Virus record (IMG/VR): IMGVR_UViG_2671180556_000023
Location: 1 to 10,435 of that record
Origin: a virus
Lineage: Duplodnaviria; Heunggongvirae; Uroviricota; Caudoviricetes
Length of the DNA stretch: 10,435 nt
Strand: one strand, 5' to 3'
Shown: positions 7,018 through 9,349 of the stretch, one piece after another
Numbering within the stretch: position 1 is the stretch's first letter
How the letters are laid out: each line of letters begins with the position of its first letter
Position numbers and translations under genes: made by a program
Notes under the pieces: model-generated
What the model was told of the DNA's origin: nothing
Database searches by the model: none
The model's input: the letters and a program-made list of their open reading frames with translations, nothing else

Positions 7018-7023
7018 TGCGCG

Positions 7024-8484
7024 CTACTCTTTTTTAAGTGTTTGCAGTAAAGTTAGAATATCTTTATATTTTTTTTCATTAAAATGAAAGCCATAGGGTT
7101 CAAAAGATTTTAGATAATTTAAATACCCTCTTAGTTTGTTAATCGTTAATTGACTGTTATCCTGTTCTTTAAGAGCATGATCAAATGCTGAGCGAATTTT
7201 CTTTCTGTAAGTTCTAGTTGGCCTTACCGCCTCATTAACGAGAATCCCAGTGACAACTTGACGGCTATTATATGAAGATATTCGCTTTTTTTCTTTATTT
7301 AATTTAAATCCATGTGATAGTAATTTATCCTCAGCAATACTTATAAGTATCTCTAAGTTTTCTTTTTTATCACTACTGATGGATATATCATCAGAGTAAC
7401 GAGTATATATACTATCAAGAGTTAAGGCTTGGAAACTCATTTCTTCGTCAAATTCGAAAAGTACTGCATTTGATATTATAGGGCTTGTAGGTGCACCTTG
7501 TGGAAGTACATCATTATATGTAACTATACCAGAGATAGTGTTGATAACATGCTCCGGTATGTTATTTTTATAAAAACAATCCTTGACCATCTTTTTATTA
7601 ATCGAACCAAAGTAATCCGAAATATCTATATTTGCGACAAACTTTTTTCTTACATGATTAATTGCATTATCTTTTATACTTACACCACTTCTGTATGAAT
7701 AACAGGAAGAGTGTATTTTTAAACGGTTTAACAGATGATCTTTTAACCAATACTGTAAGGTTTTAATGAATTTCCGGGGAGCAAGGATGGGTCTAAAACC
7801 ACCGGATTTTTTTTGTAAATTAAATGTGCGATAGTATCTTTGGGGAGATTTTATCATTGCAGTTATCAACCCTGGAGATATGCCAATACAAGAGGCAATA
7901 GCAGTTACTCCATCACTATTAAAAAAAACTTCGTCGAGTTTATTAAATGAATAGTAATTTAAAGAAAAACCTAATCGGCCAATAGAGTGGTGTGGCGAGC
8001 TTTTCGTTGTGGGTGGTGTGCTGGCCTCATTACTGGACATCGAACCAATATTTAATTGCTCGTAGATCCGCACCCAAGCCTGTCTTGGGTGCGGAACCTC
8101 TTTTGAATTGTGCCTTAACTGTAAAGACGGCGAACCACCGCCCATATTCTCTGTATCAGTTGAGGCCAGCACTCTTAATTTACTAGCAGAGTGGCAGTTG
8201 TCAAGCATAAATAGTCTAATTTTATCACGAAGCTTTTTCAGCGATGGAGTTAGTCGTTCATTTCCTTTAGGCGTTAACGAATAAAGGTTGTTACGCTTCG
8301 ATACTTGATGTATATATCCATGTTGATCAAGTAATTCAAAATAATGAATCATTTTCTCAACTTCAGGTAATAAACCATTATCATTTAAAGTAGATGCAAG
8401 GTAATTTAAAACCTCATTTGGAGATGCGAGCTGAATAACGGATAGCCCCCAAACAATTAATTTATAATTAGTAGATTCTTCCAT
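7024..8484 (-). CDS. Retron-type reverse transcriptase in a 486-aa ORF with an N-terminal winged-helix-like extension; RT proper probably begins at Met149 (ATG 8040), giving 338 aa
   Basis: RT motifs in the C-terminal part: QKKSGGFRPI (res 225-233), retron-type NAxxH (NAINH, 273-277), NIDISDYFGS, LPQGAPTSP, YxDD as YSDD (363-366), retron-type VTG (411-413). Residues 1-100 look like a PadR-like wHTH (GYIHQV...YSLTPKGNERL). Residues 105-156 are encoded by a GC-rich structured element (see ncRNA feature). Confidence 0.85.
   Translation of the reverse strand: MEESTNYKLIVWGLSVIQLASPNEVLNYLASTLNDNGLLPEVEKMIHYFELLDQHGYIHQVSKRNNLYSLTPKGNERLTPSLKKLRDKIRLFMLDNCHSASKLRVLASTDTENMGGGSPSLQLRHNSKEVPHPRQAWVRIYEQLNIGSMSSNEASTPPTTKSSPHHSIGRLGFSLNYYSFNKLDEVFFNSDGVTAIASCIGISPGLITAMIKSPQRYYRTFNLQKKSGGFRPILAPRKFIKTLQYWLKDHLLNRLKIHSSCYSYRSGVSIKDNAINHVRKKFVANIDISDYFGSINKKMVKDCFYKNNIPEHVINTISGIVTYNDVLPQGAPTSPIISNAVLFEFDEEMSFQALTLDSIYTRYSDDISISSDKKENLEILISIAEDKLLSHGFKLNKEKKRISSYNSRQVVTGILVNEAVRPTRTYRKKIRSAFDHALKEQDNSQLTINKLRGYLNYLKSFEPYGFHFNEKKYKDILTLLQTLKKE
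8018..8172 (-). ncRNA. Candidate retron msr-msd ncRNA embedded in the RT ORF
   Basis: Perfect 12-bp inverted repeat GTGCTGGCCTCA (8018-8029) / TGAGGCCAGCAC (8161-8172) flanks about 130 nt, like retron a1/a2 repeats. Inside is a perfect 12-bp stem hairpin (8067-8078 pairs with 8084-8095, 5-nt loop). The segment is GC-rich within an AT-rich cassette, and the in-frame ATG at 8040 would start a canonical-length RT. Confidence 0.45.
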
Positions 8485-8577
8485 ATTAATATCCTAATAA
8501 ACCACCTTTTCGCTGAATTATTTTTTTGTTTTCTATCCTAGAAATTACAGATTTTAACCCATCATCATCTAGTGAGT

Positions 8578-9162
8578 TTAAAGAATATAACTTGCAGTTA
8601 TTATCATCACAGTATTGAAAAGTTCCATTAGATAAAAAATATCGCTATTTTTTAAGGTGTCGCTAGATATTATTATTATATCTGTACTATCGATTTTTGT
8701 AGATACTTTAAAGTAACTTATTAATGTTAGTTGTGATAATGTGACTTCATCTAATGCAAAAATTATCACAGTATCACATTTGACGGTTTTTATAAATTCC
8801 AACTCCGCAAGATGTGGATATGTTATTTGAGTTTTAGGTAGGACTGTTTTTCCTCCGCCCTCATAAACTTTAGCACCCATCCTATCTAATTTTTGTTTTA
8901 TTTCTTCTATGACTTTTAAAGTTGCTTCATCATCAATTTCTTTGTTAGGATAACAAAGTAATATGTTATACTCTGCAGATACAAATTCTTCTTTTAAAGA
9001 GCTTCTTATCTCATCAATTAGAGAGTTTTTTATTGCATTTGTATCAATGTGAGGACTATTGGCATTAACAATGACTTGCGTGATAATTGTCGTATTGTTC
9101 TTACCCACGACAGTAGACTTTATGTTTTGATCAACATTTTGAGATTTATTATTTTCCATCAT
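8578..9162 (-). CDS. 194-aa hypothetical protein, candidate retron effector; possible flavodoxin-like (TIR/NDT-like) core
   Basis: Long open frame in AT-rich DNA. First ATG is at 9162 (MMENNK...); the ORF-track start at 9195 is TTG; neither has a clear Shine-Dalgarno. The pattern EYNILLCYPNKEIDDEATLKVIEEIKQKLDRMGAKVY resembles the beta-alpha-beta start of TIR or nucleoside deoxyribosyltransferase-like folds; this is impressionistic. Confidence 0.55.
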   Translation of the reverse strand: MMENNKSQNVDQNIKSTVVGKNNTTIITQVIVNANSPHIDTNAIKNSLIDEIRSSLKEEFVSAEYNILLCYPNKEIDDEATLKVIEEIKQKLDRMGAKVYEGGGKTVLPKTQITYPHLAELEFIKTVKCDTVIIFALDEVTLSQLTLISYFKVSTKIDSTDIIIISSDTLKNSDIFYLMELFNTVMIITASYIL

Positions 9163-9340
9163 CTTGTTTAATATTTGTTGTGTTACCCCATCCAAAATTA
9201 AAAACCTTAGCGATCTTTTGGGTGCCGGTTTTTATTTTTTTTCTAAATATTAATGCTGTGATGGCTAATACTATAAGTGATATGGCATAAACGCCAATAC
9301 CAGAGAAAACCCATTCTGCATTACTATGTAGCCACGTCAT
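9149..9340 (-). CDS. 63-aa small membrane protein (single predicted transmembrane helix)
   Basis: ATG at 9340, 9 nt after the integrase stop; hydrophobic helix WVFSGIGVYAISLIVLAITALIF followed by a basic stretch RKKIKTGTQK; overlaps the next ORF start by 14 nt in another frame. No clear Shine-Dalgarno. Confidence 0.45.
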   Translation of the reverse strand: MTWLHSNAEWVFSGIGVYAISLIVLAITALIFRKKIKTGTQKIAKVFNFGWGNTTNIKQDDGK

Positions 9341-9349
9341 GTTTAGCTC

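Follow-up and report, generated by a model that had tools for sequence, protein, structure and literature searches.

Type II-A retrons combine a reverse transcriptase (RT) and a noncoding RNA (ncRNA) with an adjacent gene for an NDT-like (cluster 42) effector, and their subtypes differ mainly in where a winged helix and the ncRNA are placed. In the type descriptions of Mestre et al. (2020, PMC7736814), type II-A2 is defined by an RT of clade 1, an ncRNA called 'IIA2', an NDT-like protein of cluster 42_3 and a winged helix on the N-terminus of the RT. In type II-A1, represented by Retron-Sen2 (St85) and by Retron-Eco3 (Ec73) of the P4-like retronphage phiR73, the winged helix is instead the C-terminal domain of the effector, the ncRNA is intergenic and lies upstream of the effector gene, and the RT, also of clade 1, is about 310-320 amino acids long and lacks an N-terminal domain. 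Retron-Eco1 (Ec86), of type II-A3, has an RT of clade 9, an NDT-like effector with a DNA-binding domain of its own, and an ncRNA outside any open reading frame (ORF). Type II-A1 and type II-A2 retrons are both housed in P2/P4 hotspots (Mestre et al. 2022, PMC9226505). Here we describe a cassette at positions 7018-9349 of a 10,435-nt stretch of DNA from a virus of the Caudoviricetes (IMG/VR record IMGVR_UViG_2671180556_000023, positions 1 to 10,435; this whole stretch is hereafter called the window). We hold with high confidence that this cassette is a type II-A2 retron in the sense of Mestre et al. (2020), situated next to cos, in the psu-int hotspot of a P4-like satellite, and this confidence covers the explanation as a whole, including the mechanism proposed below.

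The three ORFs of the cassette all lie on the minus strand and are co-oriented with the integrase gene (int), as had been stated in the original prediction, which was made from the sequence without database searches. The longest of them (8484-7024) encodes 486 amino acids and matches the PADLOC profile RT_II-A (PDLC02940), with residues 1-484 aligned to profile positions 1-476 of 477 (E = 1.1e-200). Across the retron RT hidden Markov models of PADLOC, the E values range from 1e-45 to 1e-200, and Pfam reports RVT_1 (E = 2.3e-23) as its only match, together with sub-threshold winged-helix families within the first 90 residues. In a search of PDB sequences, residues 196-462 matched solved retron RTs with E values of 1e-20 to 1e-38, including Kva2 (9e-38), Ec67, Ec78, Ec83 and Ec86 (3e-28), the last of these making the RT of Retron-Eco1 one of the solved structures nearest to the RT domain of the window. 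The motifs that characterize retron RTs are present as NAINH for NAxxH of region X (7668-7654, residue 273), YSDD for YxDD (7398-7387, residue 363) and VTG of region Y (7254-7246, residue 411), and NCBI/RefSeq names the gene 'retron St85 family RNA-directed DNA polymerase'. A DRT or Abi RT and a group II intron RT were considered and rejected, as the best non-retron matches in PADLOC and the PDB are far weaker. The middle ORF, adjacent to the RT gene, matches the PADLOC profile NDT_II-A (PDLC02929) with an E value of 5.4e-59, and the gene order, NDT-like effector followed by RT with its winged helix, is that of type II-A2.

The N-terminal part of the RT ORF (approximately amino acids 1-103, 8484-8176) is predicted to form a winged helix-turn-helix (wHTH) domain with a long C-terminal helix. 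An alignment-based AlphaFold2 (AF2) model of residues 1-105 has a predicted local distance difference test score (pLDDT) of 90.3 and the topology H-H-H-beta-beta-H, and Foldseek matches this model in the PDB to PadR, MarR, Fur/Zur and AspA winged-helix proteins with a probability of about 1 and TM scores of about 0.5, in line with the earlier suggestion of a wHTH domain linked to the RT. A profile of the domain found nothing significant among PDB sequences. By themselves, the N-terminal 105 amino acids match positions 1-101 of the RT_II-A model (E = 1.4e-35), and the domain also gives a weak match (E = 0.022) to the longer NDT_II-A profile PDLC02930, at positions 223-267 of 272, which is the C-terminal end of that profile. 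This weak match would agree with the domain-transfer idea of Mestre et al. (2020), without proving it. The winged helix is thus fused to the N-terminus of the RT and split from the effector, which is the arrangement that sets type II-A2 apart.

The cassette had been thought to match no described retron type. This is incorrect, because the definition of type II-A2 fits it and because its proteins have already been listed at this very hotspot. Table S1 of Rousset et al. (2022, PMC9122126) gives, for the P4 hotspot of NZ_CP035751, the set 'hypothetical + hypothetical + RVT_1', consisting of WP_000220053, WP_000970452 and WP_000393065, and for the same hotspot it also lists WP_000970452 with WP_052909903. 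These protein sets are the proteins of H2 and H1, two of the seven genomes (H1-H7) among 5,426 complete E. coli genomes that carry the cassette at 99.6% identity or more. A sister system (of the P0027/L085 type) is curated in the same table as 'Type-II retron (Mestre et al., 2020)'. Likewise, the ncRNA of the cassette is homologous along its length to that of entry 348 of Khan et al. (2024), a type II-A2 example from K. pneumoniae ('terminal 348'), with which it shares a1 GCTGGCCTCA, a2 TGAGGCCAGC, the msr hairpin and the base of the msd stem, as well as an enterobacterial host. The cassette is a known kind of retron, already classified and at an already catalogued place, and it does not differ in kind from other members of type II-A2; its peculiarities are a frameshifted effector gene, an msd stem that is shorter by 39 nt and a P19L substitution in the winged helix. 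Compared with the other subtypes, it shares with Sen2 and Eco3 an RT of clade 1, an NDT-like toxin (RcaT family) and a tripartite toxin-antitoxin logic, and with Ec73 residence on a P4-like satellite. With Eco1 it shares the NDT-like effector; the effector of Eco1 is an msDNA-regulated N-glycosidase (msDNA, multicopy single-stranded DNA) and serves as our mechanistic model, although no PDB chain shows detectable sequence similarity to the effector of the window.

The place of the cassette in the satellite was also borne out. Window positions 1-6998 are 98.2% identical to phage P4 (X51522/NC_001609, record positions 4636-11624), indicating a P4-like satellite backbone, and this alignment ends at 6998, which is also the end of the P4 record; past cos there is no megablast-level match to P4. 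The 19-nt cohesive-end site of the P2/P4 type, GGCGAGGCGGGGAAAGCAC, follows at 6999-7017 on the plus strand and forms the boundary of the hotspot, 6 nt from the stop codon of the RT gene, and window positions 6954-7025 are matched solely by P2-type cos regions. The GC fraction is 0.328 in the cassette (7018-9349) as opposed to 0.561 in positions 1-6998 and 0.434 in the integrase part, confirming an AT-rich interval between cos and int in a GC-rich backbone. Because nothing beyond cos matches P4 at the megablast level, the cassette occupies the place of gop-beta-cII in P4, and its position between the cos/psu side and int is that of the variable cargo in the hotspot of P4-like elements (Rousset et al. 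2022), where systems share the cos/psu-int location and consist of AT-rich cargo in a conserved backbone, the cargo of P4 being gop, beta and cII. Together with the PADLOC matches and Table S1 of Rousset et al. (2022), the end of the P4 alignment upholds the earlier view of a retron cassette in the P4 cos/psu-int hotspot.

We next consider the ncRNA, which lies on the minus strand (8172-8018) within approximately codons 105-156 of the RT ORF, as located by inverted repeats, fold, covariation and homology. It is delimited by two perfect 12-nt inverted repeats, a1 (8172-8161) and a2 (8029-8018), between which the predicted fold places an msr hairpin (8143-8126), a second small msr hairpin, a shortened msd stem-loop (8096-8067, also located by alignment) and a small hairpin between msd and a2 (8059-8042). 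These are the contiguous elements of a retron ncRNA, with an msd stem of just 12 bp in this copy. The minimum free energy is -71.2 kcal/mol (z = -6.98), and none of 200 shuffled sequences folded equally well. An Rfam search with E values up to 1 found no retron family in the cassette, the P4 immunity RNAs being the only families found in the window.

The conservation of this RNA was assessed across 16 loci with RT identities from 100% down to 30%, from E. coli, Citrobacter, Pantoea, Shewanella, Vibrio, Duganella, Halodesulfovibrio, Pseudolabrys, Alteromonadales, Thermoleophilia, Pseudomonas and Accumulibacter (individual loci are designated by L numbers). A contig scan based on the RT alignment, which relied on generic retron motifs (LPQGAPTSP, YxRYxDD), returned mostly unrelated retron RTs and just four full-length II-A2 loci (L003-L006); the diverse loci were gathered instead by protein-to-contig retrieval. 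An inverted-repeat pair was observed at a constant position in the ORF (approximately nt 306-330 to nt 467-518) in nearly all 16 loci. Its sequence is lineage-specific, with at least eight different versions (GTGCTGGCCTCA, TTGCTAGCCT, GCCAGAAGA, GTCGCGTGAGC, TAAGGGTGCTTCTG, TGCAGGGGAG and others), and in 10 of the 16 loci the length of the repeat was reached by at most 2 of 500 shuffles. The inverted repeats are weakest in L089 (6-nt perfect repeat, reached by 138 of 500 shuffles), followed by L086, L005, L006 and L088 (9-23 of 500). MAFFT did not align a1 and a2 across lineages, and the evidence for them therefore consists of the repeats in each locus and the shuffle controls, formal covariation being counted on the msr hairpin and the msd stem. 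For these two elements, pairing is possible in 97.3% of cells, the corresponding figures being 72% after shuffling of columns and 36-43% after sliding of the partners, and compensatory double changes are found in 18 of 26 pairs. The covariation score is 0.681 versus 0.224 in shuffles, with no shuffle out of 500 scoring as high. Five loci that were folded singly, among them L089, L086, L005 and L006, all gave the common architecture.

These loci also retain the reading frame through the RNA. Over ORF nt 271-600 (110 codons), frame 0 contains no stop codon in any of the 16 loci, while the other two frames contain 76 and 145 stops. The residues of the linker track the RNA, such that GGxSPS corresponds to the msr hairpin GGCGGTGGTTCGCC and is replaced by AGVSPA or ADVSSA where the hairpin covaries. 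The earlier proposal of a structured RNA within the ORF is thus confirmed by the repeats, the folding energy, the covariation and the open frame. One could read the 486-amino acid ORF instead as an annotation artefact that joins a separate small wHTH protein to an RT of about 300 amino acids starting after msd, which would leave the ncRNA intergenic. In canonical retrons msr-msd does precede the RT start, the ncRNA here has a strong structure, and the conserved promoter-like motif just before it means that a transcript without the wHTH codons probably exists. We nevertheless regard such an artefact as highly improbable, since length differences in the stop-free linker, for example that of 39 nt, preserve the frame, and since a single ORF of 476-515 amino acids is kept in more than 100 homologs with identities down to 30% and coverage of at least 95%. 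An RT start codon located internally, after a2, was rejected, because the stretch from a2 to the RT domain contains no conserved start codon, and the next methionine after a2 in the window is at about residue 214, inside the RT domain. Because frame 0 is open in all loci compared, the homologs have one ORF and no internal start is conserved, we infer that the RT is made as a wHTH-linker-RT fusion in which the codons of the linker would also be the retron template. The position of msr-msd within the ORF is implicit in published data (Mestre et al. 2020; Khan et al. 2024) and is to that extent already known in practice.

A promoter-like element resembling those of sigma-70 was found inside the wHTH coding sequence (8204-8177, minus strand). 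It consists of a -35 TTGACA (8204-8199), a 16-nt spacer and a -10 TAAATT (8182-8177), and it ends 4 nt before a1 according to the promoter scan. A motif of the form TTGnnn-N16-18-TAnnnT that ends 4-7 nt before a1 is present in 15 of the 16 loci, whereas about 0.014 per locus would be expected from the density of the motif in the same ORFs. Its TTG falls within conserved LL codons of the C-terminal helix of the wHTH domain, and its TAnnnT falls within a poorly conserved segment of the protein. It is this positional conservation that argues for a promoter, from which the ncRNA could putatively be transcribed independently within the ORF.

The effector gene of the window reads as an ORF of 194 amino acids (ATG at 9162, stop at 8578, minus strand) that encodes an NDT-like protein with a flavodoxin/TIR-like fold. 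This ORF ends in an aberrant tail of 20 residues after SDIF, and homologs match just its first 90% or so. A T6 homopolymer at 8639-8634 marks the site of a -1 frameshift, there being a T7 run in H1, H2 and H3 (in alignments that include L001 and L002), and the displaced 3' part of the gene (8633-8486) lies out of frame; read in the intact frame, as in the translation of L001, it encodes LSNGTFQYCDDNNCKLYSLNSLDDDGLKSVISRIENKKIIQRKGGLLGY followed by a stop. The intact frame runs LSNGTFQYCDD...NKKIIQRKGGLLGY and ends with TAA at 8488-8486, one base before the ATG of the RT gene. In nearly all homologs the protein has 224-225 amino acids, and the displaced segment, the conserved C-terminal part of about 50 residues that the frameshift removes, holds the nearly invariant residues G179, F181, Y183, C184, D186, C189, R208, K212-I215, G220, L222 and G223. 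With this segment restored, the PADLOC match grows from profile positions 1-155 to positions 1-198 of 199. Because it has one T fewer than its relatives and the native protein has 224-225 amino acids, the 194-amino acid ORF is, judging from these sequences, not the native gene. The protein of 194 amino acids described in the original prediction is therefore present as read, but it is a frameshifted version of a longer one.

The stop codon of the intact effector frame and the start codon of the RT gene are 1 nt apart, and across loci this junction varies among a 1-nt gap, direct abutment and overlaps of 1, 4 or 8 nt, a pattern usual for translational coupling. A programmed frameshift leading out of the effector gene into the frame of the RT was considered and rejected on the grounds that the RT frame contains a TAG 12 nt before its ATG, that the junction sequence UAU UAA U is not slippery and that the junction is variable. 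The final residues of the effector (NKKIIQRKGGLLG, window 8486-8530, alignment columns 213-231) belong to its best-conserved positions and run exactly up to the RT start codon, and this conservation could reflect either a constraint on the protein or a translational-coupling signal for the RT. Other loci show variation in the effector as well. In a Pantoea sp. (L084, 2351-2680), the effector is truncated to 109 amino acids in a II-A2 locus that is otherwise intact, which is an independent loss of the presumed toxin. A Shewanella locus (L086, 1790-3004) encodes an effector of 404 amino acids with a protease-like N-terminal half and an NDT domain, most of which matches PADLOC LmuA (E = 1.5e-13); a protease-like N-terminal extension of such effectors is noted in the effector descriptions of Mestre et al. 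The effectors of the distant II-A2 loci L088-L091 match Pfam STM3845.

Comparison with the seven E. coli genomes indicates the state of this copy. The msd stem of five of them (H3-H7) is 39 nt longer, the additional sequence being the apical part of a stem of about 30 bp, and msd stems of at least 20 bp are found in all other lineages. The window, H1 and H2 share a 39-nt deletion between CCCAAG direct repeats (approximately 8084-8090) that leaves the 12-bp stem, and they also share L19 at a nearly invariant proline of the winged helix. The effector frameshift is confined to the window. The closest relative with an intact effector is H2 (L093, E. coli E110019), and at its equivalent of window position 7076 an A8 run is changed to A7, giving an RT of 476 amino acids with the changed tail NEKNIKIF before the stop. 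These differences point either to decay of this sub-lineage or to sequencing errors in the homopolymers. The homologous satellites bear out in part the possibility, raised earlier, that the ORFs are decayed remnants, as this copy looks partly decayed and is probably impaired, and relatives carry intact alleles. A genuine frameshift would probably leave it inactive or attenuated.

It is nonetheless quite possible, if somewhat short of probable, that the cassette is a fully functional II-A2 retron in which the difference in the T run is a sequencing or assembly error and the msd that is shorter by 39 nt is a tolerated natural allele. The change from T7 to T6 is the sole difference from H1 over 2.3 kb, the single-base change of H2 in the A8 run of its RT gene adds to a pattern typical of homopolymer errors, the shorter allele occurs with an intact effector in several records, and the remaining 12-bp msd stem still folds strongly. 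Against a functional copy, toxin genes of toxin-antitoxin-like systems are often inactivated, as in the independent truncation in Pantoea L084, the sub-lineage also carries P19L at a near-invariant position, and every other lineage has kept an msd stem of at least 20 bp. As it stands, this copy is unsuitable as a cloned representative; the E. coli allele of the F8704-2 type has both an intact effector and a full msd stem.

With respect to mechanism, the type II-A2 retron is likely to be a tripartite toxin-antitoxin system that acts by abortive infection. We propose that the ncRNA would be transcribed from the internal promoter or within the operon mRNA and would fold via pairing of a1 and a2, after which the RT would copy msd into msDNA. 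The complex of RT and msDNA would keep the NDT-like toxin inactive, with the DNA-binding winged helix located on the RT instead of on the effector. Release of the effector would then be brought about by phage proteins acting on msDNA through methylation, degradation or binding, and the freed effector would arrest the cell, probably via NAD(P)+ or nucleoside N-glycosidase activity, and the outcome would be an abortive infection that protects the host population of the satellite. This scheme follows related systems. In Eco1, a filament of RT, msDNA and N-glycosidase is activated by methylation of msDNA and hydrolyzes NAD(P)+ (PMC12916289), and in Sen2 the RT and msDNA together are the antitoxin to RcaT (PMC8632793).

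Several observations weigh against this explanation or parts of it. The only II-A2 retron that has been tested, from K. pneumoniae, was scored 'RT-DNA 0 by PAGE' (Khan et al. 2024) in an artificial RT-then-ncRNA arrangement, and our literature search found no II-A2 retron demonstrated to make msDNA and no defence assay for type II-A2. The fold of the effector is indistinguishable from that of TIR or receiver domains, and the protein has neither a Pfam match nor a PDB sequence match, for which reasons its enzymatic activity is assumed. Promoter-like matches are no more common than in shuffles when counted region-wide (10 vs 12.3). The small upstream ORF of the cassette, orf63, is absent from the distant II-A2 loci (L088-L091), and the effector frameshift, being located in a homopolymer, may be an error of sequencing.

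The cassette might also serve mainly the satellite itself, either as an addiction (toxin-antitoxin) module that stabilizes the integrated element or as a device that acts on the helper phage. The P4 genes gop and beta, in whose place it stands, are believed to form a toxin-antitoxin pair (Rousset et al. 2022), the cassette is translationally packed behind int, and type II-A2 has no defence phenotype in the literature. A role of this kind is unlikely in our view, as type II-A2 retrons also occur outside satellites and near other defence genes (L088 beside TIR-domain genes, L089-L091 in chromosomal locations), as related II-A retrons defend against phages, and as validated defence systems are overrepresented in the P4 hotspot (Rousset et al. 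2022). In the Duganella locus (L088, 5412-7134), a TIR/TIR_2 gene and a CAP12-PCTIR_TIR gene lie directly downstream of the II-A2 retron, with an integrase gene adjoining, a context that is defence-island-like.

The remaining ORF of the cassette, orf63 (9340-9149, minus strand), encodes a small protein of 63 amino acids with one hydrophobic helix (residues 14-32, mean Kyte-Doolittle value 2.5), in agreement with the small single-pass membrane protein described earlier. It has no Pfam match, and its PADLOC match to PDC-M43A is weak and covers profile positions 1-37. Its ATG lies 9 nt beyond the integrase stop at 9350, and it overlaps the start of the effector gene by 14 nt; in L083, L085 and L092 the integrase gene abuts or overlaps the small ORF. 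An ORF of 55-70 amino acids with the motif EW[VI]FSGIG is kept in L083, L084, L085, L087 and L092, which form an enterobacterial and vibrio branch, and its constant place is ahead of the effector gene, following int or whichever gene lies upstream. The family is rare, with 10 representative clusters. In P0160, P0161 and P0167, which are single larger proteins of 128-377 amino acids, N(K)EW[VIL]FSGIG occurs twice, suggesting that the transmembrane motif is a reusable membrane-anchor module. The small ORF lies outside the published definition of type II-A2; the account of cluster 42 in Mestre et al. (2020) says that these proteins may be bitopic.

The rest of the window is in keeping with a P4-like satellite. 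RefSeq annotation of the near-identical E. coli loci L001 and L002 gives alpha primase, Icd-like, AlpA, sid-like, delta, psu and tyrosine integrase, and the 3' part of the integrase gene occupies 9350-10435 on the minus strand, continuing past the end of the window. On the minus strand of window 3794-4079, Rfam identifies the set of P4 immunity RNAs, with scores of 76.6 bits for the C4 antisense RNA, 74.9 bits for isrK and 50.2 bits for the c4-a1b1 target. Such a set is usual in P4, and its presence confirms the backbone. At the megablast level, the integrase does not match that of P4. Both flanks of the satellite carry halves of fhuE (1141-1488 and 12710-14554 in L001, 1141-1488 and 18567-20333 in L002), one side having a fragment with the plug of a TonB-dependent receptor and the other having fhuE without its N-terminus; this variant of the integrase therefore seems to insert into fhuE rather than into a tRNA gene. 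Two GC-rich hairpins are located between the psu stop and cos, at 6930-6954 and 6980-6999, and the second of these, read on the minus strand (6999-6980), is followed by a T run and could act as a terminator of the retron operon just beyond cos.

As a locus, the cassette adds little to what is known, as PADLOC or DefenseFinder would call it, its proteins are in the table of P4-hotspot systems and NCBI names its RT as that of a retron. The interest that remains concerns type II-A2 as a whole, namely the use of the ncRNA as coding sequence, the conserved internal promoter motif and the small membrane partner. We propose, tentatively and with some doubt, that type II-A2 represents a natural retron template that doubles as coding sequence and is transcribed from a promoter in the wHTH codons, and that the small membrane protein is a fourth component in the enterobacterial and vibrio branch. 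Our literature search yielded neither a statement nor a test of read-through, of an internal promoter or of the small ORF in type II-A2. The rearranged II-A2 construct could have failed to give RT-DNA because the retron needs its native nested arrangement or its N-terminal domain. Overlap of RNA and ORF in retrons is starting to be described, a 2026 preprint having reported a coding region embedded in the structured RNA scaffold of type VI retrons. If our proposal is true, selection would act on about 190 nt at once to maintain RNA pairing and an open frame, together with promoter function just upstream, and an ncRNA nested in a conserved ORF behind a promoter-like motif would constrain both the engineering and the evolution of type II-A2 retrons.

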